The notes beneath the pieces are model-generated. The model saw only the letters and a list, made by a program, of their open reading frames with translations. It ran no database searches and had not been told where the DNA came from. Below, in pieces: positions 7,025 to 31,978 of a stretch of DNA of 64,000 nt. This stretch comes from an uncultured Eubacteriales bacterium. Lineage in GTDB: Bacteria; Bacillota; Clostridia; Christensenellales; Aristaeellaceae. Location: assembly GCA_900548145.1 (NCBI GenBank), contig URJB01000005.1:14589-78588 (forward strand). Direction: 5' to 3'. A program made the translations under genes and the position numbers. Positions within the stretch are counted from its first letter, which is position 1, and each line of letters begins with the position of its first letter.

Positions 7025-7025
7025 C

Positions 7026-12860: not shown

Positions 12861-12870
12861 GGCATTGAAT

Positions 12871-12902
12871 AAAAACAGGGGCAACCAGCGTCCCTGTTTT
12901 TA
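12871..12902 (+). terminator. Intrinsic terminator
   Basis: aaaaacagggg-caaccagcg-tccctgttttta. Confidence 0.75.
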
Positions 12903-13102
12903 TTCGATGTACATTATGGCTTAAAACGTTTATAAATCAACAAAAAAGATTTACGTAAAAAATGTATATTTTGGAAAAAAACAAAGAAAAAGTATATATA
13001 CAGAGTATTGGGAAGCCTTTATACTGACCGTGATATAGCAAAGCGGCCGCTTGCTAACAGCTACATCATTTCATCAAAAAGGAAAGGGAACGGGAGATCG
13101 TC

Positions 13103-14734
13103 ATGAAAAAAATCACTCGCCTGTTCGCTCTATGCCTGACCCTCGTGCTCGTCCTGAGCATGACTGCGGCAGCCACGGCGGAAAACATGGACAACCTCAC
13201 TGAAACCGGCACCTACCCAATCGTAAAGGACAAAATCACCCTGACTTACTGGGTTCCCCTGAACGAAAAGTACACTGCCACCATTACCAACTTCAACGAG
13301 CTGGAAATGAGCAAGGTGCTGGAAGACATCACCAACATCCACATTGAATACCAGCACCCCGTGGAAGAAGTTGCTTCCGAACAGTTCAACCTGATGGTCG
13401 CTTCCGGCAATCTGACGGACATCATCGAGCAGAACTGGATGGGTCGTCCCGGCGGACCTGAAAAGGCTCTGGAAGACGGCGTAATCATCGACATGACCGA
13501 CCTGATCGATCAGTACGCTCCTAACTATAAGAAGATTCTGGAAGAAACGCCGGAAGGCGCCCGTCAGGCCGCTACCAGCAGCGGACGGCAGTATATGATG
13601 ACTGGCTTCTACTATGGAGATGCCGTAGCGGCCAAAATCATGATTGGACCCCAGTACCGTCGCGACTGGCTCCGTCGGCTGAATCTGGAAGACCCGGTCA
13701 CCATCGAAGACTGGTACAACGTGTTGACCGCTGTGAAAAACAACGATGCCAACGGCAACGGCGATCCCAACGATGAGATTCCGCTGATTTCCAAGGGCGC
13801 TTCCATCAGCTGCGCCAACGACAACATCAACGTCCTGGCTTCCGGTTTCGGTGTGAACATGAAGTTCTATAACGATAACGGCACCGTGAAGTTCGGCCCC
13901 TATGAACCCGAATGGAAAGAGTACCTGCAGGAAATGAACAAATGGTACAGCGAAGGCCTGATCGACGTTGAATTTGCTACTACGGACAAGACCATGTTCG
14001 ACGCCAAAATTTTCGGCAACCAGGCTGGCTTCTGGTTCTGCGGTCTGATGGGTGACATGGGCCGTTTCGTGAAGTACTGCGACGAGGACGAACCCGACTG
14101 GGAAATCGCCGCTCTGGCTTATCCCGTGGACGTGAAGACCGGCAAGGCTTATAACTTCTGCGCCGGCCTGAACGACATCGTCTGCTCCAACGGTGCCAAT
14201 ATCACCACTAAGAACCAGAACCCCATCGCCACCACTCGCTGGTTCGACTATGCTTACACCGAGGAAGGCCATCGCCTGTACAACAACGGTATCGAAGGTC
14301 TGACCTACAATCTGGTGGACGGCAAAGTCGTGTTCACGGATCTGATCCTGAACAACCCAGACGGTCTGGACATTACCCGTGCGATCGCGCATTACTGCCG
14401 CGCCGCCGGCACCACCGGCGCTCATATGCCCGACCTGGCCGTGATGAACGCCCGCGCCAACCATCCCCTGCAGCGTGAAGCCCGCGACGTGGTCTGGGCC
14501 AAAGCTTCCACCGAGCGCACTCTGCCCTCTCTGGTCATCGACCCCGAATATAGCCAGGAGCAGAGCGAAATCCTGAACGAAGTCTACACCTACGTAGATG
14601 AAATGATCCTGAAGTTCATCACGGGTGCTGAGTCCTTCGATAACTACGACAACTATCTCAACACGCTCAAGTCCATGGAAATCGAGCGTGCAATCGAGAT
14701 CGAGCAGCTTGCCTACGATGCCTACATGAAATAA
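13103..14734 (+). CDS. Large extracellular solute-binding protein of a CUT1-type sugar ABC importer (LplA-like)
   Basis: 543 aa with signal peptide MKKITRLFALCLTLVLVLSMTAAATA. Followed by two LplB/LplC-type permeases. Codon usage suggests high expression. Confidence 0.9.
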   Translation: MKKITRLFALCLTLVLVLSMTAAATAENMDNLTETGTYPIVKDKITLTYWVPLNEKYTATITNFNELEMSKVLEDITNIHIEYQHPVEEVASEQFNLMVASGNLTDIIEQNWMGRPGGPEKALEDGVIIDMTDLIDQYAPNYKKILEETPEGARQAATSSGRQYMMTGFYYGDAVAAKIMIGPQYRRDWLRRLNLEDPVTIEDWYNVLTAVKNNDANGNGDPNDEIPLISKGASISCANDNINVLASGFGVNMKFYNDNGTVKFGPYEPEWKEYLQEMNKWYSEGLIDVEFATTDKTMFDAKIFGNQAGFWFCGLMGDMGRFVKYCDEDEPDWEIAALAYPVDVKTGKAYNFCAGLNDIVCSNGANITTKNQNPIATTRWFDYAYTEEGHRLYNNGIEGLTYNLVDGKVVFTDLILNNPDGLDITRAIAHYCRAAGTTGAHMPDLAVMNARANHPLQREARDVVWAKASTERTLPSLVIDPEYSQEQSEILNEVYTYVDEMILKFITGAESFDNYDNYLNTLKSMEIERAIEIEQLAYDAYMK

Positions 14735-14763
14735 GAGCTTTCCGCAGTGGCTCGTACAAGCGG

Positions 14764-14826
14764 GTGGAGCGCCGGCGCCTGTCGGCGCTCCACTTCCATC
14801 CGGGAGCCTTCCGCCGCAGGCGGAAG
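14764..14826 (+). promoter_or_regulatory. Two GC-rich stem-loops between the binding-protein and permease genes (no U-tail)
   Basis: gtggagcgccg-N8-cggcgctccac (perfect 11-bp stem) and cttccgcc-gca-ggcggaag. Confidence 0.5.
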
Positions 14827-14859
14827 CCACGCGCAAAGCTGATGAAAGGAGTTCCCGAC

Positions 14860-15804
14860 ATGATTTCCGCACAAAAAACGGTTTATCAGAAGAAGCCACT
14901 GGCGCGCCGTCTTCATGCTGATCTGAAAAAAAACGGATGCCTGTATCTGATGCTGATTCCCATCATTGCTTTTTTTCTGATTTTTCACTACTACCCCATG
15001 TACGGCGCTCAGATCGCCTTTCGAAATTTCCGCCCGGCCCTCGGCATTCAAGGAAGCCCCTGGATGGGTCTAAAGCACTTCATTTCTTTTTTTAACGGTC
15101 GTTATTTTTCCCGCGTGGTGGGCAATACGCTTTCCATCAGCCTGAAAAATCTGTTGTTTGGTTTTCCTGCGCCGATTCTGCTGGCGCTCATGATTAACGA
15201 GGTGCGCAACAATACCTATAAACGCTGCGTACAGACCATTTCCTATCTGCCTCATTTTGTTTCTCAAGTGGTTATGTGCGGCCTTTTGTTTGAATTTTGC
15301 AGCTACACGGGCCTTTTCAACGATGTTCGCGCACTGTTTGGTCTGGAACCGATTCTCTTTCTTCAGCAGCCGGAGATGTTCCAAACGATCTACGTTGCCA
15401 GTGATATCTGGCAGGGAGTAGGTTGGGGGTCCATCATCTATCTATCTGCCCTGACCTCCATTGATCAGGAACAGTACGAATCCGCCAAACTGGACGGTGC
15501 CGGGCGGCTCAAGCAGATCTGGTACATTACCCTGCCGAATCTGCTGCCGACCATTATGATCATGCTGATCCTGCGAATCGGTCAGATGATGAACATCGGC
15601 TCGGAAAAAGTCCTGCTGTTGTATAACCCGCTCACCTATGAAAAGGCGGATGTTATTTCGACCTTTGTTTACCGCAAGGGTATTCTGGAAGCCAGCTATT
15701 CCTTTAGTGCGGCGGTAGGCCTGTTTAATTCCGTTATCAATTTCCTGCTGCTGGTTACGGTGAATTTCATTTCACGCAAAACCACGGAAAGCAGTCTATG
15801 GTAA
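14860..15804 (+). CDS. Sugar ABC transporter permease (LplB-like)
   Basis: Multi-TM MalF/BPD family. ATG 8 nt after aaaggag; track ORF start 14764 lies inside the hairpin region. Confidence 0.88.
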   Translation: MISAQKTVYQKKPLARRLHADLKKNGCLYLMLIPIIAFFLIFHYYPMYGAQIAFRNFRPALGIQGSPWMGLKHFISFFNGRYFSRVVGNTLSISLKNLLFGFPAPILLALMINEVRNNTYKRCVQTISYLPHFVSQVVMCGLLFEFCSYTGLFNDVRALFGLEPILFLQQPEMFQTIYVASDIWQGVGWGSIIYLSALTSIDQEQYESAKLDGAGRLKQIWYITLPNLLPTIMIMLILRIGQMMNIGSEKVLLLYNPLTYEKADVISTFVYRKGILEASYSFSAAVGLFNSVINFLLLVTVNFISRKTTESSLW

Positions 15805-15816
15805 GGAGGGAGAAGC

Positions 15817-16698
15817 GTGAAAATTCAAAGAACGGCAGAAGAACGAGTTTTTGAATATATCAACGGTTTTCTTCTGTTTCTGGTAATGTTTGTCTGTCTG
15901 TATCCGATGATTCATATCATCGCGGCCTCCTTTTCGGATGCGACGCGGATTGTTTCCCACCGTGGCTTGCTTTTCTGGCCGGTCGGCTATTCCGTGGAAG
16001 CCTATTCTCTGGTTTTTGCCAACCGCTGGATCACCTCCGGGTATCTGAACACGATGTTTTATGTTCTTGTGGGCACTACGCTGAACGTCGTGCTGACGGT
16101 GGTGGCCGCTTATGCCCTTTCCCGGGAAGGGAACCGCATTCGGAACATCGTAATGCTCATGATTACCTTCACCATGTATTTTAACGGCGGTTTGGTTCCC
16201 ACCTACATGCTCATCAACAACCTGGGACTGGCCAACACCCGCTGGGTACTAATTATCCCCGGTGCGGTCTCCGCGTACAACCTGATCGTCGCGCGCACCT
16301 TCTTCGCAGGGATTCCCGTAGCTCTGGAAGAATCTGCGAAAATCGACGGTGCCAACGACTTCCAGGTGCTCTGGAAAATCTACGCGCCGCTGGCCAAGCC
16401 CATCATCGCCGTACTGACGTTGTTCTATGGTGTCGGTCACTGGAATGCGTGGTTCAACGCTTCTCTGTACATTCAGGATCGTTCTCTTCTGCCCCTGCAG
16501 GTGTTTCTGCGGGAAATTCTGATTCAGAATTCCACGCAGAATATGACCACCAGCATTGACAGCGTTGACAAAATGATGGTGGGCGAAACAGTCAAGTATG
16601 CGACAATCGTCGTCGCTACCGTCCCCATTCTGATTTTGTACCCCTTCCTGCAGAAATATTTTGTCAAGGGAGTCATGATTGGCTCCATCAAAGGATAA
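15817..16698 (+). CDS. Sugar ABC transporter permease (LplC-like)
   Basis: GTG start after ggaggga. EAA-loop-like block ESAKIDGANDFQVLWKIYAPLAKP. Confidence 0.88.
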   Translation: MKIQRTAEERVFEYINGFLLFLVMFVCLYPMIHIIAASFSDATRIVSHRGLLFWPVGYSVEAYSLVFANRWITSGYLNTMFYVLVGTTLNVVLTVVAAYALSREGNRIRNIVMLMITFTMYFNGGLVPTYMLINNLGLANTRWVLIIPGAVSAYNLIVARTFFAGIPVALEESAKIDGANDFQVLWKIYAPLAKPIIAVLTLFYGVGHWNAWFNASLYIQDRSLLPLQVFLREILIQNSTQNMTTSIDSVDKMMVGETVKYATIVVATVPILILYPFLQKYFVKGVMIGSIKG

Positions 16699-16710
16699 GG
16701 AGGATTGCTT

Positions 16711-19700
16711 ATGCGGCTGAATCAAATCACGTCCTACGAGCTTCAAAACCGGGAGCTTCGGCTGCACTTTGGAAACGAAGCTGTCTGCGGACTTTCTATG
16801 ACGGCGGAAGATGTGCTTCGCCTGCGCTTTAACGAGGGATTGGAACTTCAGGAGGACCCGGACCGCATGGTCGTAGAACAGGTGCCGGAGCTTCTGGAAC
16901 TGCAGCTGATTCCTGAAAAGGCATGTCTGCGTTTCCGCACCTCCAAGGTGGAGGTGTTGGTAGAAGAAAAGCCTGCCCGAATCAGCGCATATCAGTTGGA
17001 CGGACGACTTGTTTTTTCCACTAAGCCCTGCGCCATGGGCGAAGTCGAAAAGGAGCGTTCCGTCCTGCGCGTGGCTCTGGATCGAAACGAGGGAATCTGG
17101 GGCTTGGGACAGGATCCCATGGGGAACGTTCAGCGCAATGGTCATGAACGCCGGATGTGGAACGAATGGGGCGGCCTGCACGTCTGTGCCAACGCGGCTC
17201 TGCCTTTCTATCTTTCCAGTCATGGTTATGGTCTGCTTTTGAATAGCGGATGGCCCAGCCGTTTTGCGATAGGCGAAGCCAAGGTATCCGATCCGCCGCC
17301 CGCTCACAGCATTGAGCGTTCGAAGGGGCCCTGGGATTGGAACGTTTCTTCCGGTGAGGAAGACCCGGATGATATGAGCCTGATTCTGGAAAACGGCCGC
17401 ATGGACGTATTTGTGGTGCTGCGCTCCGGCGATGAGGCCATTCGCGGCTATGGCGAGCTGACCGGCGCTGCGCCCCTCCCCCCAAAGTGGGCCTTCGGCT
17501 ATTTTCAGAGCAAAAACCGTTACCGTACCGATGAAGAGTTCCTGACGCTGGGAAAAACCTACCGGGAAAAGAAGATCCCCTGCGACGTGCTGGTGCTGGA
17601 CTGGCTGTGGTTCCATCAGTTCGGCGATATGGAATGGGACAAGGAATACTGGAAGGATCCCGAAGGAATGCTTCGCAAGCTGCATGAAATGAACTTCCAT
17701 GTCATGCAGGCGTACCATCCCTTCATTTACGAAGACTGCCTGAAGGTGCAAAAGTTCCGGGAAAAGGGCTACCTGATGGGCACCCCCGCCAACACGCTGC
17801 CGATTTTTGACCATTCGAACCCCGAGGCTCGGGAAGCATGGTGGCAGGAGACCAAACGGTTTGTCGATCAGGGCATCGACGCTTATTGGATCGACATGGG
17901 CGAACCCCGAGATCATCCGCAGGGAACCACCTGCCATCTGGGCAGTCGGGAGCACGTGCATAACCTTTATTCCTCCTTCTGGGCCAAGAGCATCTATGAC
18001 GGTCATGTACGGGATCTTAAGACCCGTCCGTTCCTTTTGTCCCGCACTTCCTATGCAGGCATTCAGCGTTACGGCGCGGCCCTGTGGAGCAATGACATCG
18101 ACTCTTCCTGGGAAGTGCTCCGGGATCAGGTGCCGGTAGGCATCGGCGTTTGCGCATCCGGTCTTCCCTACTGGTGCACCGACATCGGCGGTTTTGCCAC
18201 GGATGAACGTTTCAGCCCGGAGCTCTTTGTCCGGTGGCTGCAATGGGGCGTTTTCTGCCCGCTGATGCGTACCCACGGTACCCGTGCGGAAAATGAGGCC
18301 TGGTCTTACGGGAGTGAAGCAGGACCTATCATCCGGAAGTATATCGAACTGCGTTACCGTCTGCTGCCCTACATCTACTCCTGTGCCAGAGAAGTTTATG
18401 AAACCTCTAAACCAATGCTGCGCGGACTGTTCCTGGACTACCCAAACGATGAGAAGGTTTACGATCTGAAGGACGAATATCTCTTTGGGCCTTCGCTGCT
18501 GATTGCTCCGATTCTGAACCGTGACCAGCGTTCCAGACAGGTGTACCTGCCTGAAGGCGAATGGTTCGATTTCTGGACGAATGAAAAAATTTCCGGCGGG
18601 CGAACCATTACTGCGCAGGCTTCCCTCTCCCACATTCCTGTTTACGTTAAGGCTGGCAGCCTGCTGCCGCTGGCGGACTGCGCCCAGTTTGTGGGGGACA
18701 AGCCGGAAAGTCGCATCACCGTGCGTACCTATGGAGACCATGGGCAGTTCGTTCTGTATAACGACGCCGGAGAGGGCCGGGGCTATCAGAAGGACGAATA
18801 TGTCAAAACGCTGCTTAGCTGGGAGAATGGACAGCTGACGGCTCAGGTGATCGAGGGTATGGAAAGCATGCTTCCTTCCGACCGTACCTATCAGGTAGAG
18901 TGCTGCGGTGAAGACGGTGCAGTCGCGGAATGGCTCCATTTCGATTGGGATCAGACCACCGACCGCACGACCCGCATCCATATCACCGGCGATACTAAGC
19001 TGGAACAGACGATCCTCCAATACGAAATCACGCTGCCGGAAGGCATGAAGCTGACCCATGCGCCCTGCTATTTCCGCAAAACGCCCCTGAACAAGGGAGA
19101 AAAGACCATGCGTGGGCTGGTAGATTTCCAGTTTGATATCCAGCCGGAGCGTATCAGCCAACCCGTCATTTTCCCGGTTCGTATCCAGCTTCATATTCAG
19201 CGTAACGGTCAGGAGACGGAATGCCAGCGCACGCTCCTGTGCGGCTATGGCTATGTAAACGACCTGCAGATCCTTGGATTCTTTGAGCCGAACGATCCCG
19301 CAGACGCAGTTGTGATGGCTCGGGTAGAAAGCGGAGAGCTCCCCTATTCCTACCTCATCGGCGAATCCAGCCATCAATCCATGGAACGGAAAACCATCGA
19401 TGACGGCGAGTTGAGCAATGGCGGTGCCGGCACGGACGAAGCTGCGCGGAAAGTTTTCTGGAAGCACTGTGTAAACGCCACCTGCTTTGGTTATCAGGAT
19501 ATGCGTGCGTTTGCCTCCAAGCGGATGAAGAACGGCCGTGGAACCGGCTATGCCAGCTTTACGGCCATCAGCCCGGACGAACGGGAGTGTTCCTTCGAGT
19601 TCTCGGCAGACCGCACGTTCGCTCTGTGGGTGAACGGCGAGCTGGCCTATGAGAAAGACGGAATGCAGCTCAAGCAGGTTCCCGAAACCAAGCTTCGCCT

Positions 19701-19839
19701 CCATCCCGGAGAAAACCGTTTCCTCGTGCGCTGCTTTGTGGACTATCCCGAACAGCGCAGCGGCCGTGAAGTGGGCTTCAGCCTATCCCTGTTGAACGAA
19801 AACGGCCAGCCCGCTCAGGATCTTCTCTACCATGCCTGA
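16711..19839 (+). CDS. Glycoside hydrolase family 31 (alpha-glucosidase type) with about 330-aa C-terminal extension
   Basis: PPKWAFGYFQSKNRY, nucleophile block YWIDMGEP, acid/base block WSNDIDSSWEVL. ATG 7 nt after aaggagg (the track starts at an upstream TTG). Confidence 0.9.
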   Translation: MRLNQITSYELQNRELRLHFGNEAVCGLSMTAEDVLRLRFNEGLELQEDPDRMVVEQVPELLELQLIPEKACLRFRTSKVEVLVEEKPARISAYQLDGRLVFSTKPCAMGEVEKERSVLRVALDRNEGIWGLGQDPMGNVQRNGHERRMWNEWGGLHVCANAALPFYLSSHGYGLLLNSGWPSRFAIGEAKVSDPPPAHSIERSKGPWDWNVSSGEEDPDDMSLILENGRMDVFVVLRSGDEAIRGYGELTGAAPLPPKWAFGYFQSKNRYRTDEEFLTLGKTYREKKIPCDVLVLDWLWFHQFGDMEWDKEYWKDPEGMLRKLHEMNFHVMQAYHPFIYEDCLKVQKFREKGYLMGTPANTLPIFDHSNPEAREAWWQETKRFVDQGIDAYWIDMGEPRDHPQGTTCHLGSREHVHNLYSSFWAKSIYDGHVRDLKTRPFLLSRTSYAGIQRYGAALWSNDIDSSWEVLRDQVPVGIGVCASGLPYWCTDIGGFATDERFSPELFVRWLQWGVFCPLMRTHGTRAENEAWSYGSEAGPIIRKYIELRYRLLPYIYSCAREVYETSKPMLRGLFLDYPNDEKVYDLKDEYLFGPSLLIAPILNRDQRSRQVYLPEGEWFDFWTNEKISGGRTITAQASLSHIPVYVKAGSLLPLADCAQFVGDKPESRITVRTYGDHGQFVLYNDAGEGRGYQKDEYVKTLLSWENGQLTAQVIEGMESMLPSDRTYQVECCGEDGAVAEWLHFDWDQTTDRTTRIHITGDTKLEQTILQYEITLPEGMKLTHAPCYFRKTPLNKGEKTMRGLVDFQFDIQPERISQPVIFPVRIQLHIQRNGQETECQRTLLCGYGYVNDLQILGFFEPNDPADAVVMARVESGELPYSYLIGESSHQSMERKTIDDGELSNGGAGTDEAARKVFWKHCVNATCFGYQDMRAFASKRMKNGRGTGYASFTAISPDERECSFEFSADRTFALWVNGELAYEKDGMQLKQVPETKLRLHPGENRFLVRCFVDYPEQRSGREVGFSLSLLNENGQPAQDLLYHA

Positions 19840-19855
19840 AAAAGGAGACATCACC

Positions 19856-20857
19856 ATGAACGAAATCAGCAATGTACTGGTAACGGTTCCTTTTCCAGAG
19901 GAACAAATGAAAAAATTGGAACAGGCCTTTGCTCCTGCCAAGGTCTGGATCCTGTCCAATAAGGATACCGAAGGAATTTCCAAGGCACTGGAGCACGCCG
20001 AAGTTGCGATTCTTAATGGCGACCTGAACGATCAGATTCTTCGAGAGGGTCAAAAACTGCGCTGGATCCATTGTGACCACTCTGGTCTGACCCATTCGGC
20101 CCGGCAGGAGATTTTCGACCGTGGGTTGGCTGTCACGGGGGCGGCGGGACGTTCCGCCCCCACGCTGGCCGAACATGCCATTATGTTCATGCTCTCCCTG
20201 ACGTATGCTCTGCCCGAGCTGTTTGAACTGCAAAAAAAGCATCAATGGGGTGGCCTGCCCGGTTATAACGACCGGCGCGGCCTGATTGAAAAAACAGCGG
20301 GTATTATCGGCGTAGGCCATGCCGGTTCGGAACTGGCACGCCGTCTGAAAGCCTTCGGAATGAACGTTATCGGCTATCGCCGCCGTGCTCAGGACGTAGA
20401 AGGCGTGGATCGGATGTATTCCAAAGATGCCGGAGATACAATCGCTCCCCTGCTTCAACAAAGCGACTATCTGATCCTGATGACCCGTCTCAATGATGAA
20501 ACCTACCACATGATCGGTCGGGAAGAACTGCGGCAAATGAAGCCGGGGGCCTATTTGATCAACATGTGCCGGGGAAGCGTTATCGATGAGGCGGCCCTGC
20601 GGGAGGCGCTGGAGACCGACGTCATTCAGGGAGCGGGCGTGGATACCACGGAAGTAGAACCGCTTCCCGCCGACAGCCTCCTGTGGGATGTCCCCCATTT
20701 GATCATTACTCCCCATAACACCCCTACCGTGCCGGATCGTTGGGCGCGCTCGCTGCAGATCGTCCTGGAAAATCTGGAACTCTATCGGGAAGGGAAAACG
20801 CTGCAGAATCAGCTGACTCAGGAAGATCTTTTCAGCCGTAAGCGTCCCACAGCCTAA
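19856..20857 (+). CDS. D-isomer-specific 2-hydroxyacid dehydrogenase family protein
   Basis: AGIIGVGHAGSELARRL NAD fold; NMCRGSVIDEAAL; ITPHNT. Starts 17 nt after the GH31 stop with RBS aaggaga. Confidence 0.85.
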   Translation: MNEISNVLVTVPFPEEQMKKLEQAFAPAKVWILSNKDTEGISKALEHAEVAILNGDLNDQILREGQKLRWIHCDHSGLTHSARQEIFDRGLAVTGAAGRSAPTLAEHAIMFMLSLTYALPELFELQKKHQWGGLPGYNDRRGLIEKTAGIIGVGHAGSELARRLKAFGMNVIGYRRRAQDVEGVDRMYSKDAGDTIAPLLQQSDYLILMTRLNDETYHMIGREELRQMKPGAYLINMCRGSVIDEAALREALETDVIQGAGVDTTEVEPLPADSLLWDVPHLIITPHNTPTVPDRWARSLQIVLENLELYREGKTLQNQLTQEDLFSRKRPTA

Positions 20858-20873
20858 TTTCAGGAGGAAAAAG

Positions 20874-22991
20874 ATGCCTTGGTATACAGAGGTAACCCGC
20901 TGGGGTCAAACCAACCTGACGGAAAACGATCCCCCACGAATTGATCTTGATTTTTGGCGGAAATATTGGAAAAAAATGCGCATTGGCGGCGTTATCGTAA
21001 ACGCCGGCGGCATTGTAGCCTATTACCCCAGTCGGTTTCCTCTGCAATACCGGGCAAAAGAGCTGGGCAATGGCGACCTGCTGGGCCGTTTCATCCGTAC
21101 CGCACGGGAAGAGGGACTGGCCATCATTGCCCGCATGGACAGCAATCGGGCCACGGAGGAATTTTATCGGGCTCACCCAGACTGGTTCTGCGTAGATCGT
21201 GACGGAAAGCCCTATCAGTCTCAGGGACGTTACTTTTCCTGTGTCAACAGCGATTATTACCGGGAATACCTGCCCGCCGTTTTAAGAGAAATCGTCGAAA
21301 GAGAGCACCCGGACGGTTTTGCCGACAACAGCTGGTCCGGGATGCGAAAAGGAACCATCTGCTACTGCGATAACTGCCGGAAACGTTTTCAGGCGGACTG
21401 CGGCGCAGCGCTGCCGGAAAAAGCAGACTGGGAGGATCCCGTCTACCGCAAATACGTCAATTGGAGCTATCGGTGCCGTACAGAAGTATGGCAGCGCTTT
21501 GACAGGGTCGTTCAGGAGGCGGGAGGGCCGGATTGCCGTTGGATCGGGATGGTCAACGCAGACCCGGCCGATCTGGGCGGTCACTATGTGGATCTGCACG
21601 CTGTCTGCTTCATGGCTCCCGTTGTGCTTAACGATCATCAAAGCCGCAACGCGCTGGATGGTTTCGAACAAAACGTCCTCAACGGTCAGCTGCTTCATCT
21701 ACTGGGTGGCGAGGACAAACTGGTGCTGGAAAGCATGGCGCATTATGTGACAGGCGACAGAACCTTCCGTCTCAGCGCCATGCCGGCCGCCGAGGTGCAG
21801 ACATGGATGGCGGCAGGGTTTGCCGGTGGGATCTCGCCATGGTTCCATCACATCAGCGGCGGCACGGAAGACCGGCGCAGATTTTCTTCCACACCCGAAC
21901 TGATGCAGTGGCATGAAAAAAACGAGCTTTCATTGTACAGCCGCAAAAGTCTGGCCGACGTAGCGCTGCTCTGGAGCCGGGAAAACAGTGATTTCTATGG
22001 ACGTGATCAGGTGCGGCAGCGCGTGTCGCTGCCCTGGCGCGGCTTTACGGCGGCGCTTCGGGATATGCGGATGCCCTTTCTTCCCCTGAATGCAAGCGAT
22101 CTTGGCCGGGAAAAAGGCAGGCTCCGCGCCGTCATTCTGCCTGATCTGGCCGCCATGAGTGATGAGCAGGAAGAGGCCCTTTGCACCTACCTGCGTGAAG
22201 GTGGCAGCATTCTCCTCACCGGGAAAAGTGGTTTGCTCAATGAAGAGGGCCTTCCCCGCCGGGAAAGCAAGCTATGGCGTATGTTGGGTATGGAACTGGC
22301 TTCCCATGCGGAAGAAAGCACCGCCGAAGCCCGTGGAAATTGGGAAAACGCCGCCCGTCATACATATCTGGCGTTAGAACCGAAACGCCACGCACTTTGG
22401 AAAGGGCTGGAAGATACCGACATTCTCGGCTTCGGCGGAATCTTGACTCCCGTGCGTTCCCTTGGCCTGCTGAAACCATTGGGCGGCGTTATTCCGCCCT
22501 TCCCGATTTATCCGCCGGAAATGGCCGCGATTCCACAGCCTGATTGGCGCTTCCCGGTCATGCTGGCCGGTGAATTGCCCTGGGGCGGTCGGGCCGTCTA
22601 CTTGGCAGCGGATATTGACCGTTGCTACGGACAGGATCGTCTGCCGGATCACAGTCTTCTTTTACAAAACGCTGTGGATTGGGTCATTGAAGGCCAGCGT
22701 CCTCTCTGGGTAGACGGCCCCGGCAAGCTGGCCGTCAGCCTGTATCAGCAGGGAAAACGCAAAATTCTGCATCTGGTCAATGTGGGCGAGATGGATGGAA
22801 AGCCCGGATATCGGGATGAAATTCTTCCTCTGCCGGAAGTCATCGTCTCGCTGCCCTTAGCGGAAGACGGCAACGTTTGCAGCCTGACCCGTTCTGTTCC
22901 ACCGGAAACCTGGCGGCAGGATGGCCGCATATATATCAAAATTCAACAGTTGGAACTTCAAGAAGTTCTGGTCGTGGAGGAAAAGCCATGA
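20874..22991 (+). CDS. GHL6 / GH42-like TIM-barrel protein, paralogue 1 (activity unknown)
   Basis: N-terminal W..QTNL..ND block, SCVNS + CYCDNC cysteine cluster. Homologous along its length to the ORFs at 22988 and 26921. Confidence 0.8.
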   Translation: MPWYTEVTRWGQTNLTENDPPRIDLDFWRKYWKKMRIGGVIVNAGGIVAYYPSRFPLQYRAKELGNGDLLGRFIRTAREEGLAIIARMDSNRATEEFYRAHPDWFCVDRDGKPYQSQGRYFSCVNSDYYREYLPAVLREIVEREHPDGFADNSWSGMRKGTICYCDNCRKRFQADCGAALPEKADWEDPVYRKYVNWSYRCRTEVWQRFDRVVQEAGGPDCRWIGMVNADPADLGGHYVDLHAVCFMAPVVLNDHQSRNALDGFEQNVLNGQLLHLLGGEDKLVLESMAHYVTGDRTFRLSAMPAAEVQTWMAAGFAGGISPWFHHISGGTEDRRRFSSTPELMQWHEKNELSLYSRKSLADVALLWSRENSDFYGRDQVRQRVSLPWRGFTAALRDMRMPFLPLNASDLGREKGRLRAVILPDLAAMSDEQEEALCTYLREGGSILLTGKSGLLNEEGLPRRESKLWRMLGMELASHAEESTAEARGNWENAARHTYLALEPKRHALWKGLEDTDILGFGGILTPVRSLGLLKPLGGVIPPFPIYPPEMAAIPQPDWRFPVMLAGELPWGGRAVYLAADIDRCYGQDRLPDHSLLLQNAVDWVIEGQRPLWVDGPGKLAVSLYQQGKRKILHLVNVGEMDGKPGYRDEILPLPEVIVSLPLAEDGNVCSLTRSVPPETWRQDGRIYIKIQQLELQEVLVVEEKP

Positions 22992-25045
22992 ATCACGAAT
23001 GGTGGAAAAAGCCCCTGCGGGTTATTCAGACCAATTTACAGGTGCTGGATACCCCCAAAATGGAGCCTGAAAAAATCGCCGCGGAAATGGAAGACCTGGG
23101 GGCCAATGTGCTGGTGGTCAATGTAGGCGGCATTTACGCGTGGTACCCAACGGAAGTACCGTTCCATACGGTGAATCCCTGTCTCCCGGAGTCCTTCGAT
23201 TTGCTTCAGGAACTGATCATTTCCTGTCACCGCCGAAACATTCGACTGGTGGCTCGTTATGATTTTTCCAAGGCAAGCGACAGCGTTTACCAACGGAAAC
23301 CCCAATGGTTTTCCCGCAATCCTGATGGAACTCCGCAGGTCATCGGCGCGATGCGTCCGGGGCAATGGGATCTGCTCTACTCCACCTGCATCAACAGCGG
23401 ATACCGCAATGGTGAGGTTGCGGAAAAGGTACTACGTGAATCTCTGAGCCGCTATGAGATCGACGGCGTTTTCTTCAACGCGCCCCATCCAACCGACTGT
23501 CATTGCTCCCGTTGCAAGGAAAAATATCGTTCTCTGTACGGCGAGGAACTTCCTGATCTGCAACGCAATTGGCGTAAGGAATGGAAGAGCCGCTGTCTGT
23601 ACGACAACACCACCCGTCTGCGGCAGGCGGTTCAGGAAACCCGAAGCGACGTTCCTGTGATTCTCTACTATTCCATCGCCTCTGACAATCTGTTCGATCG
23701 GTTGGCCAGCTGCGATATGATCTGTGCGGAGCCGCAGGATGTTCTTTCCCTTGGCTGGAAAGAGATTCCGCAGAGCTTTAAGCCTGCCCTGTGCATCCGT
23801 CTAGGCCGTTCCGAGCCGGATACGCCCCGTCCATTCGGCATTATTCATTCCTGTCCCGGAATGGACTGGCGACATACAGGCCTACCAAGCGCCGAATATC
23901 TTTACTGGATGAGTCAGGTACCTGCCAATGGCGGCCAGATCTGGCACTCCATCACCGGCTTCCCAGATACCATCTCCGATAAGCGCATTCTGGAAAATGT
24001 CCGCACGATGAACCGCCAGATCATGAAAGTAGAAAAAGATATGGAAGGCGCACGTTCCCGGGCGGCCGTCGCGCTTCTCTGGGATATGGACGGCGGAGAC
24101 ATGGCCAAAGCCTTTGGCGGCAGGCTGGACGCGCCCGCCAACAGTTGGGCGGAAGCAATGCTGGACAGTCAGATTCCCTTTGACGTACTGCTGCCGGAAC
24201 AAATCTGTCAAGGGCGTCTGAAAGATTATCAGGTACTGGTCGCTCCTGCAGGTCTGCGGGAGGGCGAACTTCTGAAGGCCGTTCAGGAGTTCGTTCATCA
24301 GGGCGGCTGCGCCGTGGTGGAAGCCTCCGGCGAGCCGGACAAAAAGGTGACGGAGTGGTTGGGAATCCGGCAAGGTGTCCAGCAAAGTGAACCCTTGAAT
24401 GCCTGCTATCTTCGGATGGAACCCGGCAATGACCTGCCCATGGAGCAGCTTACGCACACGCCGCTTCTTCCCCTACGGGGACGTGTCCTGTATGCGGAAG
24501 CCATGGAAAACACCAAAGTGCTTGGAACACTGGTACCGCCCTTTGCCCCCATGGAGGCCGTCGGTGCCCCACCTGAACGGGCCAGCATTCCCTGTTCTCA
24601 AACTGATCTGCCCATGCTGCTCCGCCGCCGGGAAGGCGCCGGTTCCATCGTTTCTTTCCTCTTCCCTATGGCGGCTATGATCGGCGAGCTGAAATTAAAC
24701 GAACACACGCTGCTGGTCTCCGGTGTGCTGCGTCAGGCGCTGGGGAACCGGCTGGATGTGCGCATGACTCCTATTCGCGGCATTCAGCTGATGGAATATG
24801 AAAAACCGGGCTGCCGCCTGATCCATCTGGTCAATGGGATCGGCCAGCGGCCCCTGAGTCAGAACATCCCCTGCTCCGTTACTTTGGAAATCGATTGGGC
24901 GGACGAAAAACCGCTGCCCCAAATCCGCAGCCTTCTGGGCGAGGCCCCACAGGTATGCCGAAAGAACGGAAAGCTGGAAATTACGCCCTCTCCCATTCTC
25001 ACTTGGGAAGTTATCTGTCTGGACATGAAGGAGGACCTGCAATGA
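22988..25045 (+). CDS. GHL6 / GH42-like TIM-barrel protein, paralogue 2
   Basis: MNHEWWKKPLRVIQTNLQVLD start; TCINS + CHCSRC cluster. ATGA overlap with paralogue 1 (track ORF trimmed from 22877). Confidence 0.8.
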   Translation: MNHEWWKKPLRVIQTNLQVLDTPKMEPEKIAAEMEDLGANVLVVNVGGIYAWYPTEVPFHTVNPCLPESFDLLQELIISCHRRNIRLVARYDFSKASDSVYQRKPQWFSRNPDGTPQVIGAMRPGQWDLLYSTCINSGYRNGEVAEKVLRESLSRYEIDGVFFNAPHPTDCHCSRCKEKYRSLYGEELPDLQRNWRKEWKSRCLYDNTTRLRQAVQETRSDVPVILYYSIASDNLFDRLASCDMICAEPQDVLSLGWKEIPQSFKPALCIRLGRSEPDTPRPFGIIHSCPGMDWRHTGLPSAEYLYWMSQVPANGGQIWHSITGFPDTISDKRILENVRTMNRQIMKVEKDMEGARSRAAVALLWDMDGGDMAKAFGGRLDAPANSWAEAMLDSQIPFDVLLPEQICQGRLKDYQVLVAPAGLREGELLKAVQEFVHQGGCAVVEASGEPDKKVTEWLGIRQGVQQSEPLNACYLRMEPGNDLPMEQLTHTPLLPLRGRVLYAEAMENTKVLGTLVPPFAPMEAVGAPPERASIPCSQTDLPMLLRRREGAGSIVSFLFPMAAMIGELKLNEHTLLVSGVLRQALGNRLDVRMTPIRGIQLMEYEKPGCRLIHLVNGIGQRPLSQNIPCSVTLEIDWADEKPLPQIRSLLGEAPQVCRKNGKLEITPSPILTWEVICLDMKEDLQ

Positions 25046-25950
25046 AAGGGAACTATCAGGATTATATGAAACTGGGAATCGTGCATTTCATGGCTTATCC
25101 GAAAGCCATGGCCGGAACGGACGACATGAGTGAAAGCATCCATCGAATTATGGCGGATCCCGATTTTGGCTGCATCGAGCTGACCCGCATGGCGACCCCT
25201 GAAATGCGGAAGCAAGCCCGAAGCTGGGCGGCCCAGAGTGGAACCACCGTCTTCTACGGTGCTCAGCCCCAACTGATGCGCAACAAGGAGAACCTGAACA
25301 GTCTGGATGAGGAAGTCCGCCAGTCCGCCGTGCGCCGCATGAAAGCCTGCATCGACGAGGCGGAAGAAATGGGTGCGGCCGGTATTGCTTTTCTGGCATG
25401 GCATTATGACCCCAGCCGGATCGAGGAGCATTATCAGGCGCTGGTCAAAAGCACCTGCGAGATCATGGAATACGCCAAGGAGCATGGAAACATGCCCGTC
25501 AATCTGGAGGTATTCGACAAGGACGTGGAGAAATGTTCTTTGATCGGCCCTGCTCCGCTGGCCAAGCGCTTTGCCGAAGAAATAAACGCCAAGTACGACC
25601 AGTTTGGCCTGATGGTGGACTTAAGTCATATCATGCAGTTGGGAGAAAGCTTCGAAGAAAATCTGGAGCCGATCCGTCCCTATATCCGTCACGCGCATCT
25701 GGCTACCGCTGTGCTGATGCCTGAAGCGCCGGCCTACGGCGACCAGCACCCCGGATTCTATTTTGACAACGTCGTCGTGACGGAAGATATCATGGCGGAT
25801 TTTCTGCGAATGCTGTTCAAAGTGGGCTATCTGGGCGAGGGCAAGTGTCCCCCTGTCTCTTTCGAAATCAAGCCTTGGGGCGATGAGGACAGCGAAATGC
25901 TGATTGCGGGTTCCAAGCGCTTCCTGTCTCGGGCATGGGAGCTGGTCTGA
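25042..25950 (+). CDS. Xylose-isomerase-like TIM-barrel protein (sugar phosphate isomerase/epimerase family)
   Basis: Metal-ligand-type blocks NLEVF, VDLSH, HAHL, FEIKP. ATGA overlap with paralogue 2. Confidence 0.75.
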   Translation: MKGNYQDYMKLGIVHFMAYPKAMAGTDDMSESIHRIMADPDFGCIELTRMATPEMRKQARSWAAQSGTTVFYGAQPQLMRNKENLNSLDEEVRQSAVRRMKACIDEAEEMGAAGIAFLAWHYDPSRIEEHYQALVKSTCEIMEYAKEHGNMPVNLEVFDKDVEKCSLIGPAPLAKRFAEEINAKYDQFGLMVDLSHIMQLGESFEENLEPIRPYIRHAHLATAVLMPEAPAYGDQHPGFYFDNVVVTEDIMADFLRMLFKVGYLGEGKCPPVSFEIKPWGDEDSEMLIAGSKRFLSRAWELV

Positions 25951-25967
25951 AAGGAGAAAAATTACCT

Positions 25968-26924
25968 ATGAAAATCGTAGTATTAGACGGTCACACGGAA
26001 AACCCGGGCGACCTGAGCTGGGCGGAACTGGAAAAGCTGGGCGAGCTGACCGTTTATGACTTCAGCGAACCGGCGGAAGCGGCAGAGCGTATGGCGGACG
26101 CTGAGATCGTGCTGACCAACAAAACCGTTATCACCCGAGAAATGATCGAAAGTCATCCTCACCTGCGTATGATCGGCGTGCTGGCTACCGGCTTTAACGT
26201 GGTGGATACCGTCGCGGCTGCGGAACGGCATATCCCTGTATGCAACGTTCCTTCTTACGCCACGGACGCGGTTGCCCAGTATACCTTTGCGCTCCTGTTG
26301 GAGCTTTGCCATCGGGTGGGCGCGCATAATCAGGCCGTGCAGGAAGGCCGCTGGACCCAGGGTCGAGAGTTCTGTTTCTGGGATTACCCGCAGATCGAAC
26401 TGAGTGGGAAGACCATGGGTCTGATTGGCTACGGCCGCATCGGAAAGGCTGTGGAGCGCATCGCCCGCGCTTTCGATATGACGGTCCTTCACACCACGCC
26501 CTCGGGCCGGGAAGGCAGCGTTTCTTTGGACGAAGTGCTGCGGCAGAGCGACGTCATTTCTCTTCATTGCCCGTTGACAAAGGAGAATCGGCACCTGATC
26601 AGCCATGAAACGATTGCCAAAATGAAGCCCGGCGTTCTGCTGATCAATACCGGGCGCGGCCCGTTGGTGGACGAAGCCGCCCTCCGAGAAGCCCTGCTCA
26701 ACGGCCATGTGGCCGGAGCGGCCATGGATGTGACCGAACAGGAGCCCATCCCCGCGGACAGCCCTCTGCTGGGCTTGGACAACTGCCTGATCACCCCGCA
26801 CATTGCTTGGGCTGCCAAGGAAGCCCGGCAGCGCCTGATGAATACGGTCGTGGAAAACGTCCGCGCCTTTCTACAGGGAAGCCCGGTCAATGCGGTCAAC
26901 GGCGTTTTGGAGACCCGCCCATGA
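25968..26924 (+). CDS. D-isomer-specific 2-hydroxyacid dehydrogenase family protein
   Basis: MGLIGYGRIGKAVERIA; NTGRGPLVDEAAL; ITPHIAWAA. RBS aaaggag. Confidence 0.88.
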   Translation: MKIVVLDGHTENPGDLSWAELEKLGELTVYDFSEPAEAAERMADAEIVLTNKTVITREMIESHPHLRMIGVLATGFNVVDTVAAAERHIPVCNVPSYATDAVAQYTFALLLELCHRVGAHNQAVQEGRWTQGREFCFWDYPQIELSGKTMGLIGYGRIGKAVERIARAFDMTVLHTTPSGREGSVSLDEVLRQSDVISLHCPLTKENRHLISHETIAKMKPGVLLINTGRGPLVDEAALREALLNGHVAGAAMDVTEQEPIPADSPLLGLDNCLITPHIAWAAKEARQRLMNTVVENVRAFLQGSPVNAVNGVLETRP

Positions 26925-28897
26925 AATGGTGGATGGATAACCGGCTACGGATGGTACAGGCCAATCTTCGAGATATCGACATCTTCATGGATGTGGACAA
27001 AGCCGTGGAAGAATGGAAGTCCTTTTGCTGCAACACGGTGATGGTGGGGGCTTCGGGCATTACTTCGTTCTTTCCGACCGAACTGGAATGCGGCACGGAA
27101 AACCCTTTGCAGCATCGGGACCTGTTGGGAGAGATCGTAGAAAAATGCCACCGGGAAGGCATTCGTGTAATCGCCCGGTTCGATTTCAGCAAGACTCATA
27201 TCCGGCACTTTCAGGCACACCCGGACTGGTATTACCGCGATGGAGAAGGAAACGCCGTTTTCTATCACGACACCGTGCAGACCTGCATCAACGGTTCCTA
27301 TCAGCAGGAGTGCTCGCTGCAGCTGATTCAGGAGGTGCTGGATCGTTGCCCGGTAGACGGCATCTTTTTCAACATGTTCGGCTATACCACCCGAGATTAT
27401 TCCGGCGTTTACCACGGCATCTGCCAATGTGAAAACTGCCGCCGCCGTTTCAAGGAGGTGACGGGGCTCGTCCTTCCTAAACGGGAGGCGGCGGACGAGC
27501 CCGGCTTGGATCGTTACCGCCAGTTTCAAAGGGAAACCGTTCGGGAATTGCTGGACAAGATTCGTGCGGTAGTGGACGCCTGCGGACGAGACGTGGCGGT
27601 ATGTACCTATACGACTCATTCTGTGGACATGGTGCGCAATGAGTCCAATTCTGCTGTAGACCGTCCCCTCCCCTTCTGGCTGTACTCTGCCAGTGAAAAC
27701 TGCCAGCAGATCGTAGACGGCTATCCCGATAAGATCAGCAGCAACTGTGCCATTAACGCGGTGGATATTTTCTACCGTTTTCAGGGCGTTTCTCCTTGGC
27801 TGACTCAGGCCCGTCTCTATCAGAATATTGCCTCTGGCTCCGGGCTGGACTGGTGTCTGATTGGAGTATTTGAGGATTATCCTGACCGTTTGGGCTGGAA
27901 AGCCGCCCGGGAGGTATTTCGTTTTCACGCCCTACATGAGCAATACTATGGCCATTTTTTCTCTCTGGCCCGCATGGTGCTGATCCGTCCTGACGAAGGA
28001 GAAAACAGTCAAAAGGAATATCGCGGTCTTTACAGGATTTTCAAGGAACGTCACCTTCTGTTTGACGTACTGCCGCGGGAATGTCTGGAAGCTAATCCAG
28101 AGCGGCTGAATCCATATGAGTTGGCTATCTTTCCCGGTCTGCCGCGGCTGAGTGAAAACGTGCTCCGTTATCTGGAAAATGCCTCCCTGAAATTGGCTGC
28201 GACCGACGACTTTTTGAAAAAAATGCCGGAGGGTCTGCGCTGGCTGGAAAAACTGTTTGGCGTCCAGGAACTCCTTCCTGCCCCATCGATCCGTTCCTGG
28301 TATGCGGAAACGGAACCCAAAGTCGTGTTTCCGTCCTTTGTGGAAAGAGACTGGATCTTTCTGGATCAACCATTGCATTACCTGCGTACAGCGGAGGGCA
28401 ATCAGAACTGGCTGCCTCTTGTAGATCCTGCAGCCTACGGCCCGCCGGAGCGCTGTTTCGGTCATCGGAAAACGCTGTTCCCCGGCTTCACCGTGACGGC
28501 GGATGGGAAGCGTCTTTACGCTGCATTCTCCCCCGGCAGCCTGTATGAACGTTACGGCTATGAGGATCACAAACAGGTCTTTCTGGATGCCCTCTCTCCC
28601 ATGCTGCCATCTCCACCTGCGGAGATTGACGCGCCAGAGTGTGTGGAAACTTTCCTTCATGCGCTGCCTGACGGCCGATGGATTCTGCAATTCATCAACC
28701 ACAGCGGCTTCAACGGCTCCACCTTCTTTGCGCCCCGAACCGTGGAAGGCATCCGTATCAAACTACCCCAGACCCCCGACCAGATTCTGGAACTTACCCC
28801 AAGTGGCGAACAAACGCATTCGTTCCAAAAAGACTGGACACTGCAGCTAAACGGACTGTACCGAACCTTTGTCCTTCGCTTTCCGGCGTCTCACTGA
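26921..28897 (+). CDS. GHL6 / GH42-like TIM-barrel protein, paralogue 3
   Basis: MKWWMDNRLRMVQANLRDID start; TCING + CQCENC cluster. ATGA overlap with the preceding dehydrogenase. Confidence 0.8.
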   Translation: MKWWMDNRLRMVQANLRDIDIFMDVDKAVEEWKSFCCNTVMVGASGITSFFPTELECGTENPLQHRDLLGEIVEKCHREGIRVIARFDFSKTHIRHFQAHPDWYYRDGEGNAVFYHDTVQTCINGSYQQECSLQLIQEVLDRCPVDGIFFNMFGYTTRDYSGVYHGICQCENCRRRFKEVTGLVLPKREAADEPGLDRYRQFQRETVRELLDKIRAVVDACGRDVAVCTYTTHSVDMVRNESNSAVDRPLPFWLYSASENCQQIVDGYPDKISSNCAINAVDIFYRFQGVSPWLTQARLYQNIASGSGLDWCLIGVFEDYPDRLGWKAAREVFRFHALHEQYYGHFFSLARMVLIRPDEGENSQKEYRGLYRIFKERHLLFDVLPRECLEANPERLNPYELAIFPGLPRLSENVLRYLENASLKLAATDDFLKKMPEGLRWLEKLFGVQELLPAPSIRSWYAETEPKVVFPSFVERDWIFLDQPLHYLRTAEGNQNWLPLVDPAAYGPPERCFGHRKTLFPGFTVTADGKRLYAAFSPGSLYERYGYEDHKQVFLDALSPMLPSPPAEIDAPECVETFLHALPDGRWILQFINHSGFNGSTFFAPRTVEGIRIKLPQTPDQILELTPSGEQTHSFQKDWTLQLNGLYRTFVLRFPASH

Positions 28898-28903
28898 CCT
28901 TTT

Positions 28904-28938
28904 CCCCGCAAGCGTTTTTCCTTGCGGGGAAATCTTTT
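28904..28938 (+). terminator. Intrinsic terminator closing the sugar operon
   Basis: ccccgcaag-cgtttttc-cttgcgggg followed by aaatctttt. Confidence 0.7.
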
Positions 28939-31158: not shown

Positions 31159-31174
31159 TCTCTTTCCCTCCCTC

Positions 31175-31897: not shown

Positions 31898-31978
31898 ATT
31901 CTCCCACCTCCCAGGATAAGTTCAGGATCAATACTTCCGCATTGTAGCATTCCTGCAAATCCGCGTCAATGGCGGGTT

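Follow-up and report, generated by a model that had tools for sequence, protein, structure and literature searches.

Among described enzymes, those of glycoside hydrolase family 151 (GH151) stand closest to the proteins considered here. A founder of GH151, Mfuc3, was reported to match pfam14871 (PMC4723247). In ALfuk2 of Paenibacillus thiaminolyticus (structure 6TVK), Asp154, where strand β-4 ends, is the reported nucleophile, and the active site is completed by a residue, His503, from the neighbouring chain (PMC10154630). Activity of GH151 enzymes on natural fucosides is poor, and their true substrate has been doubted (PMC8395109). As far as our literature search went, GH151 is the only characterised corner of a large superfamily. 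Here we analyse a 64,000-nucleotide stretch of DNA (the window) from an uncultured Eubacteriales bacterium (contig URJB01000005.1), in which a gene array at 13103–28897 encodes three members of this superfamily, GHL6-1, GHL6-2 and GHL6-3, together with an ATP-binding cassette (ABC) importer, a family 31 glycoside hydrolase (GH31), two dehydrogenases and a TIM-barrel protein. The best description of the GHL6 core enzymes is that of a sister group of GH151, with a different active site and with ties of conserved synteny to glycerate metabolism. For the locus as a whole we favour, tentatively and as something a little short of probable, an AraC-controlled operon for the catabolism of an acidic glycoside or oligosaccharide, which would be imported and broken down to D-glycerate. 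An earlier, sequence-only reading of the array had seen a sugar locus built around three paralogous proteins of unknown activity, and had overlooked the most informative signal, namely the link to genes for tartronate semialdehyde reductase, 2-hydroxyacid dehydrogenase, glycerate kinase and LarA.

The three GHL6 proteins and their active site

In a Pfam hidden Markov model (HMM) scan all three proteins scored above the gathering threshold of the GHL6 model PF14871 (35 bits), as the sequence-only reading had proposed, and they share the W..Q(T/A)NL N-terminus and the Cys cluster that it had noticed, the cluster holding four invariant Cys. Their pairwise identity is only 24–26%, and each group has its own orthologues in other genera at 45–65% identity. 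Group 1 orthologues (42–60% identity) occur in Clostridia, Paenibacillus and Bacteroidota, with lipoprotein or Tat signals on the Bacteroidota members; group 2 extends across Paenibacillus, Cohnella, Shouchella, Saccharibacillus and Clostridia, and group 3 across Clostridia, Paenibacillus and Treponema. Because of this low identity and the separate orthologues of each protein, the triplication inside one operon that had been proposed is no recent event; the proteins represent three orthologous groups of ancient origin, which many genomes carry together. When 1.84 billion representatives were searched with a profile, the superfamily came to 1174 clusters (50% identity) with E ≤ 1e-30 and 8339 with E ≤ 1e-3, and the sequences bear generic names in their sources ('alpha-amylase family protein', 'family 10 glycosylhydrolase', 'beta-galactosidase' or 'hypothetical').

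AlphaFold models of GHL6-2 and GHL6-3 (predicted local distance difference test, pLDDT, 90.7 and 92.7) both matched 6TVK best, with template modelling (TM) scores of 0.77–0.79 and 0.75, respectively. The alignments run over the full length at 16% identity (E 1e-33 to 1e-37), and both models have the three-domain architecture of GH151, with a TIM barrel, a GH42-type middle domain and a β-sandwich. GH42 β-galactosidases (TM 0.60–0.72) and then GH164 followed among the model matches. Consistently, a sequence profile of the three groups matched 6TVK over all three domains (E 6e-30). For the GH42-type trimerisation-like C-terminal region suggested earlier, Pfam matches are below threshold (E 6e-4 to 3e-3); it is structure prediction that supports the three-domain build. 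PF08532 is weakly matched by GHL6-1 and GHL6-2, and GHL10 matches are weak or partial. GHL6-1 matches PF02449 with 31 bits over only 107 of the 376 profile positions, and the Pfam scan found no PF02449 match in GHL6-2 or GHL6-3, so that none of the three passes this test for a GH42 catalytic domain.

The 'DGIFLD' segment of 6TVK aligns with DG(I/V/F)(F/A)(F/D)N in the GHL6 proteins, so that the nucleophile column is occupied by Asn164. This residue is present in each of the 77 sequences aligned from the three groups, in 12 of 12 group 1 sequences and in 120 of 130 diverse representatives, and is never Asp; among the same 130, Arg90 is kept in 128, Arg295 in 127, Glu530 in 126 and Asp92 in 124. 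At the columns of Arg90, Asp92 and Asn164, 6TVK has Tyr, Ser and Asp. None of the three groups therefore possesses the GH151 nucleophile. Glu248, at the end of the strand that corresponds to β-6, which bears the acid/base Glu235 in ALfuk2, is a conserved residue of groups 2 and 3, though not of group 1; the correspondence is at the level of strands. With respect to GH42, Asn164 is the Asn of the Asn-Glu motif, its position being set by flanking Cys ligands, and the acid/base Glu is missing from every group, the motif reading Asn-Ser in group 1, Asn-Ala/Asn in group 2 and Asn-Met in group 3. Strand β-7, the carrier of the nucleophile Glu in clan GH-A, has His-Ser at its end in group 2, Ile-Asn in group 3 and His-Tyr in group 1, as placed by secondary-structure mapping and not by superposition. 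Since the three proteins have neither the GH151 nucleophile nor the GH42 acid/base Glu, these tests do not place them in a characterised glycoside hydrolase family with a known substrate. The earlier statement that the type has no characterised member needs correction in that GH151 is a characterised relative; it holds in that these three proteins depart from GH151 and GH42 at the residues just named and have a specificity that is undescribed, and our literature search found no characterisation of the three orthologous groups.

The groups retain a near-invariant set of their own, comprising Arg11, Gln14, Asn16, Asp21, Arg90, Asp92, Asn164, Arg295, Asp331, Tyr474, the Pro-Pro-Glu530 loop and the Cys4 site, and most of these residues lie at or just past the C-terminal ends of the barrel strands in the models, that is, on the active-site face. 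Because three Arg are conserved, an anionic substrate is suggested. The Pro-Pro-Glu loop may lie roughly where GH151 supplies His503 to the active site of the neighbouring subunit.

Synteny and a possible route to D-glycerate

We collected 80 genome loci anchored on GHL6-2 orthologues and analysed them by tblastn, clustering of open reading frames (ORFs) and family scans of cluster representatives. GHL6-2 was accompanied by GHL6-3 in 48–54 of the 80 loci, by a β-hydroxyacid dehydrogenase whose best match is tartronate semialdehyde reductase in 50, by LplB/LplC-type permeases in about 47, by the binding protein in 42, and by an orthologue of the large AraC regulator, adjoining it, in 35–47. Glycerate kinases of two unrelated families, PF02595 (18 loci) and MOFRL (4 loci), together account for 22 loci, to which Bacteroidota loci are added. 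Dehydrogenase B was found in 15–21 loci, accompanied by the TIM-barrel protein in 13–19; GHL6-1 was found in 11–18 and a LarA-type 2-hydroxyacid racemase in 9. In four loci a CdaR sugar-diacid regulator adjoins the paired kinase and reductase genes. The association appears in ten or more different gene orders. Accessory glycosidases differ from locus to locus (GH31, GH2, GH42, GH94-like, GH106-like and GH140-like), and neither GH31 nor dehydrogenase A, which has counterparts in only a few loci, is a conserved partner. The pairing of GH31 with GHL6 genes, put forward earlier as a signature, is thus lineage-specific, GH31 being absent from most related loci, and by this distribution the GH31 is an accessory enzyme of the present lineage. 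The conserved partners, by contrast, are the dehydrogenase resembling tartronate semialdehyde reductase, the glycerate kinases, a 2-hydroxyacid dehydrogenase, the TIM-barrel protein and LarA, and in two phyla GHL6 genes adjoin genes that feed glycerate into glycolysis.

The link recurs in independent contexts. One Tannerellaceae locus (L087) has the order SusC-SusD-GHL6-Amidohydro_2-GHL6-glycerate kinase-GntP. Its Amidohydro_2 gene (L087:6857–7753; lactonase/decarboxylase superfamily, no NCBIfam match) stands between two genes for secreted group 1 GHL6 proteins. Two other Bacteroidota contigs read KdgT-GHL6-glycerate kinase, and their GHL6 bears a lipoprotein signal, so that an acid formed in the periplasm would be taken up and then phosphorylated. 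In Caproiciproducens faecalis, a group 3 GHL6 gene occurs with genes for a 2-hydroxycarboxylate transporter (2HCT), DUF386, a β-hydroxyacid dehydrogenase and a glycerate kinase. In Paenibacillus agricola, a gene of the PhyH family (Fe/2-oxoglutarate dioxygenase-like; L088:9103–9930) is followed by a group 1 GHL6 gene, within an AraC-permease-permease-binding protein cluster. A 709-residue protein with no Pfam match (U709) lies beside GHL6-2 in nine loci (L016, at 14538–16667, and L011, L012, L014, L017, L018, L022, L070 and L086), usually in place of GHL6-3, with both present in L022. We considered U709 as a fourth GHL6 paralogue and rejected this (hhalign probability about 1%); it is distantly related to the GH138 α-galacturonidase BPa0997 (6HZE, E 9e-15), with an NCBIfam score of 108 bits, far below cutoff.

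The window itself holds such glycerate genes, a tartronate semialdehyde reductase and a putative class II glycerate 2-kinase, 8–11 kb upstream of the operon. The reductase passes two NCBIfam equivalog cutoffs and is homologous to the β-hydroxyacid dehydrogenase of the 50 loci. The kinase is 54% identical to the one that ends Lachnospiraceae GHL6 clusters; against archaeal- and Thermotoga-type NCBIfam equivalog models it scores 241 and 211 bits (cutoffs 550 and 670). It is the probable last step of the pathway. The third D-2-hydroxyacid dehydrogenase of the neighbourhood, which lies in the same module, reaches 235 bits with NCBIfam glycerate/2-hydroxyacid dehydrogenase models, below cutoff.

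From the gene structure, family membership, fold, residue conservation and synteny observed here we infer an acidic substrate, a C3 end point, an order of steps and hydrolytic chemistry. The substrate would be taken up by the CUT1-type ABC importer, whose binding protein comes from a clade that binds uronate-containing oligosaccharides, and the GH31 α-glycosidase, an accessory of this lineage only, would remove a decoration. The three cytoplasmic GHL6 enzymes, with their GH151/GH42 fold and Cys4 metal site, would then cleave the core, using an active site presumably made up of Arg11, Gln14, Asn16, Arg90, Asp92, Asn164, Arg295 and Pro-Pro-Glu530, with Glu248 added in groups 2 and 3. The C3 2-hydroxy-acid unit thereby released would be glycerate or a precursor of it (tartronate semialdehyde or hydroxypyruvate). 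This unit would be converted by the 2-hydroxyacid dehydrogenases and the TIM-barrel isomerase of the operon together with the upstream reductase and glycerate 2-kinase, and the phosphoglycerate product would enter glycolysis. Hints of an acidic substrate come from the solved relatives of the binding protein and from the GH138-like partner of GHL6-2 in nine loci. With regard to specific substrates, our data speak neither for nor against glucosylglycerate and mannosylglycerate, L-glyceryl esters as in gellan, N-glyceroyl sugars, rhamnogalacturonan II acids, oligosaccharides ending in an aldonic acid, or Neu5Gc.

Several points weigh against the glycerate route. To our knowledge, none of the common glycans of plants or hosts gives off glycerate or tartronate semialdehyde directly. 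If tartronate semialdehyde were the only compound to be handled, the β-hydroxyacid dehydrogenase, the TIM-barrel protein and dehydrogenase B would be redundant, and a role of the TIM-barrel protein as a true hydroxypyruvate isomerase is not supported, since it matches no hydroxypyruvate isomerase model and, in Pfam, only the superfamily model PF01261. Between the glycerate module of the window and the operon stands a four-gene ABC-2 unit, and the module carries an IclR regulator of its own. In some loci, such as L092 (Enterocloster) and L089, there is no dehydrogenase or kinase within 10 kb, and the 80 loci are not phylogenetically independent. As to the active site, the residue positions were mapped through secondary structure and HMM alignment rather than coordinates, and the offset of 29 in GH151 numbering (chain Asp183 = Asp154) was deduced from chain length, 689 against 660. 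A variant of the scheme, offered as speculation, starts from an L-configured or non-standard C3 acid, which might reach D-glycerate by oxidation, isomerisation and reduction, or directly through LarA; this would give the β-hydroxyacid dehydrogenase, the TIM-barrel protein, dehydrogenase B, LarA and the kinase non-redundant roles.

A broader proposal, which we regard as somewhat unlikely, is that the three groups form a new glycoside hydrolase-like family, sister to GH151, in which a site of an Arg triad, Asn, Asp and Glu, in place of the carboxylate pair typical of the clan, frees glycerate, tartronate semialdehyde or hydroxypyruvate from glycerate-bearing or otherwise acidic glycosides or glycans of undescribed catabolism, and that gut Clostridia, soil Paenibacillaceae and Bacteroidota share it. 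A true glycerate link would be directly testable, for example by glycerate release coupled to glycerate kinase. Such work could yield a new CAZy family and a new route of acidic-glycoside catabolism in gut and soil bacteria, and thousands of annotations ('alpha-amylase family protein', 'beta-galactosidase', 'family 10 glycosylhydrolase') would be corrected.

Among other readings, the proposal that a neutral complex oligosaccharide is broken down stepwise by GH31 and three conventional glycosidases, the dehydrogenases and the TIM-barrel protein converting the released monosaccharides, draws on the bona fide GH31 and the CUT1 importer in the operon and on the accessory glycosidases that vary between loci, as expected for a decorated glycan. 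However, GH31 is not conserved alongside the GHL6 genes, the dehydrogenases come from hydroxy-acid and not sugar-dehydrogenase families, two unrelated glycerate kinase families and acid transporters (KdgT, GntP, 2HCT) recur beside GHL6, and the canonical catalytic carboxylates are absent; we consider this reading unlikely. Still less likely, in our judgement, is that the GHL6 proteins are uronidase-like exo-hydrolases acting on pectic or uronate-rich oligosaccharides, for example of the rhamnogalacturonan type, with tartronate semialdehyde arising later by an aldaric-acid-type cleavage through enzymes encoded elsewhere. The three conserved Arg, the kinship of the binding protein with AlgQ and Smon0123, the distant GH138-like protein that replaces GHL6-3 in nine loci, the GH106-like and GH140 apiosidase-like neighbours in L080 and the CdaR sugar-diacid regulator beside the kinase-reductase pair all fit it, but the loci examined showed neither a dehydratase nor an aldolase of the glucarate/galactarate route, and the minimal KdgT-GHL6-glycerate kinase units leave no room for a multi-step acid-sugar pathway.

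It is also conceivable, though quite improbable, that one or more GHL6 proteins serve a hetero-oligomer as non-catalytic subunits or as binding proteins, or that the family consists of lyases, isomerases or transferases acting on a hydroxy-acid conjugate. The absence of the classical catalytic residues would agree with this, as would the second large partner that nearly always accompanies GHL6-2, the obligate oligomerisation of GH42 and GH151, the completion of the GH151 site by a neighbouring chain (PMC10154630) and the invariant Pro-Pro-Glu loop in a roughly corresponding region. Yet one and the same invariant set of polar residues is found at the barrel mouth in each of the three groups, an argument for a working active site in each, and single GHL6 genes stand alone with a transporter and a kinase. 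Very improbable, finally, are GH151-type α-L-fucosidases acting on fucosylated host or plant glycans, with the hydroxy-acid enzymes handling fucose-derived lactaldehyde and lactate. In favour, 6TVK is the closest match both by sequence and by fold, a gene for a GH29 fucosidase is found 4 kb downstream and some loci have genes for LarA, an Fe-type alcohol dehydrogenase (Fe-ADH) or an aldo-keto reductase. Against this, identity is only 16%, the nucleophile Asp is replaced by Asn, 6TVK has Tyr and Ser where the GHL6 groups have Arg90 and Asp92, fucose catabolism leaves tartronate semialdehyde reductase and glycerate kinase unexplained, and even for GH151 the natural substrate is in doubt (PMC8395109).

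Operon layout, importer and neighbouring genes

The ORF listing shows one unbroken plus-strand array at 13103–28897, as the sequence-only reading had it, and the gene order and families given there agree with the Pfam assignments; the count is ten genes rather than the eleven stated, and the earlier list itself contains ten (Table 1). All three ATGA overlaps (22988–22991, 25042–25045 and 26921–26924) were recovered, the remaining gaps measure 12–125 nt with a GGAGG-type ribosome-binding site at each, hairpins are present at both flanks where terminators had been placed, and there is no ABC ATPase gene inside the operon. A translationally coupled sugar-import and catabolic operon of the CUT1 type is supported, and by gene arrangement the ten-gene array is a genuine operon. 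Gene calls put the likely start codons of permease 1, GH31, dehydrogenase A and dehydrogenase B at 14860, 16711, 19856 and 25968. The number of promoter-like sites of the kind found upstream of the binding-protein gene does not exceed the shuffle expectation in the region. The spacer between the genes for the binding protein and permease 1 resembles an element for transcript stabilisation or processing, which would favour expression of the binding protein over that of the permeases. The same operon was found in 12 metagenome contigs at 99–100% identity, from pig gut and manure, and its nearest named relatives are metagenome-assembled genomes of Candidatus Spyradocola. The sole run labelled RNA had a genomic library source and yielded five short contigs.

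Table 1. Features of the operon and of the upstream region of the window (+, forward; −, reverse strand)
Feature	Position	Strand	Basis
Putative class II glycerate 2-kinase (DUF4147 + MOFRL)	1634–2875	−	Pfam, 260 + 127 bits
IclR-family regulator heading the dehydrogenase and reductase module	3078–3869	+	Pfam HTH_IclR, IclR_C
Third D-2-hydroxyacid dehydrogenase	3996–4940	+	Pfam 2-Hacid_dh_C, 207 bits
2-Hydroxy-3-oxopropionate (tartronate semialdehyde) reductase	4996–5880	+	NF008592, 450 vs 397; TIGR01505, 392 vs 341
AraC-type regulator, 771 aa, dCache and GGDEF_2-like sensor parts	10545–12860	+	Pfam
Terminator-like hairpin closing the AraC regulator gene	12862–12910	+	free energy (dG) −30.8 kcal/mol, z −8.3; A-run before, T-run after
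Promoter-like site 5' of the binding-protein gene	12997–13025	+	TATACA-17-TATACT, 9/12; consensus match only
Extracellular solute-binding protein, 543 aa, large AlgQ/Smon0123-type clade	13103–14734	+	solved relatives; no Pfam match
Spacer, binding-protein gene to permease 1 gene	14736–14860	+	125 nt, multi-hairpin, dG −64.8 kcal/mol, z −4.1, no T-run
ABC permease 1, LplB type	14860–15804	+	Pfam BPD_transp_1, 69 bits
ABC permease 2, LplC type	15817–16698	+	Pfam BPD_transp_1, 47 bits
GH31 α-glycosidase, 1042 aa	16711–19839	+	Pfam GH31 domains, 316 (PF01055), 101 (PF21365) and 40 bits
D-2-hydroxyacid dehydrogenase A	19856–20857	+	Pfam 2-Hacid_dh_C, 170 bits
GHL6-1, 705 aa, group 1, predicted cytoplasmic	20874–22991	+	PF14871, 66.0 bits; partial PF02449
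GHL6-2, 685 aa, group 2, most widespread core enzyme	22988–25045	+	PF14871, 89.7 bits
Xylose-isomerase-like TIM-barrel protein, 302 aa, sugar/keto-acid isomerase/epimerase type	25042–25950	+	PF01261, 61 bits
D-2-hydroxyacid dehydrogenase B, 318 aa	25968–26924	+	Pfam, 203 + 96 bits
GHL6-3, 658 aa, group 3, usual GHL6-2 partner	26921–28897	+	PF14871, 99.2 bits
Intrinsic terminator closing the operon	28901–28932	+	12-bp stem, 7 G-C pairs, then T-rich tail

In importers of the CUT1 type the ATPase is often encoded elsewhere, and the operon has the corresponding make-up of one binding protein, two BPD_transp_1 permeases and no ATPase gene. The best solved relatives of the binding protein are 5XS8/5GUB (E 7e-53), whose ligands are unsaturated glycosaminoglycan disaccharides; matches to the alginate oligosaccharide binders AlgQ1/AlgQ2 have E 1e-41 to 1e-45. 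The GH31 is bona fide, as had been claimed, by its Pfam domains and by the nucleophile motif WIDMGEP (fitting WiDMnE) in the translation, and its nearest solved relatives are the α-xylosidases 7KMP and 2XVG, and 6JR6. Its roughly 300 C-terminal residues (from about residue 740; 18920–19839) have no Pfam match. We rejected a sulfoquinovosidase, given that YihQ scores 125–127 bits against 335 for α-xylosidase and the NCBIfam YihQ-type model gives 178, far below cutoff; had it held, the β-hydroxyacid dehydrogenase would have been a sulfolactaldehyde reductase.

The two genes described earlier simply as dehydrogenases are indeed present and can be specified as D-isomer 2-hydroxyacid dehydrogenases (PF02826/PF00389). 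Dehydrogenase B is of the glycerate dehydrogenase / hydroxypyruvate-glyoxylate reductase type (NCBIfam PRK06487, 354 bits, under the cutoff of 448), and its solved relatives include glycerate dehydrogenase and glyoxylate reductases. The TIM-barrel protein has only weak NCBIfam matches, to psicose 3-epimerase and IolO, and no solved relative was found for it by sequence.

Upstream, the AraC-type regulator, whose orthologues recur beside GHL6-2, is probably the activator of the operon. Between it and the glycerate module lies a four-gene unit at 6101–10533, with an ABC ATPase, an ABC-2 permease, a GldG-like ABC_transp_aux protein and DUF4340. Directly downstream of the operon, in convergent orientation (29033–34180, minus strand), are genes for an M20 peptidase, a 230-residue protein of no family, DUF5058, a histidine phosphatase and the GH29 α-L-fucosidase, neighbours that recur in other metagenome copies. 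Further genes downstream in the window, such as those for a polyamine-type ABC transporter, are unrelated to the operon, as is the SbcC/SbcD nuclease pair at 48730–52475 (minus strand).

Comparison with known systems

An enzyme that releases pyruvylated galactose was considered as a relative of the GHL6 proteins and discarded; it belongs to GH1 and is irrelevant here. With the ABC importers for unsaturated glycosaminoglycan disaccharides (Smon0123) and for alginate oligosaccharides (AlgQ1/AlgQ2), the operon shares a binding protein homologous over ~450 residues and paired with two CUT1-type permeases, whereas it has neither a lyase nor a GH88/GH105 unsaturated uronyl hydrolase. In Escherichia coli, the glycerate branch is encoded by gcl-hyi-glxR-glxK and garR-garK. 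A tartronate semialdehyde reductase, a glycerate kinase, a CdaR-type regulator and a xylose-isomerase-like TIM barrel recur near GHL6 genes in the same way; however, the GHL6 loci are without glyoxylate carboligase, glucarate/galactarate dehydratase or aldolase, and the C3 acid would come from the GHL6 reaction instead.

The GH42 enzymes (3TTS, 4OIF and 1KWG) resemble the GHL6 proteins in their three-domain fold and in a Cys4 metal site at the same topological place, and differ from them in the Asn-Glu motif, with 12–15% identity. GH151 (ALfuk2, Mfuc3 and Blon_0346) is closer, with TM scores of 0.75–0.79, homology over three domains and, in 6TVK, the Cys cluster, Trp107, Glu151 and Asp159 in common with the GHL6 groups. 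Against this likeness stand an identity of about 16%, an invariant Asn where GH151 has its nucleophile Asp154, the Tyr and Ser of 6TVK in place of Arg90 and Asp92, and a genomic context of hydroxy-acid and glycerate metabolism rather than fucose metabolism.

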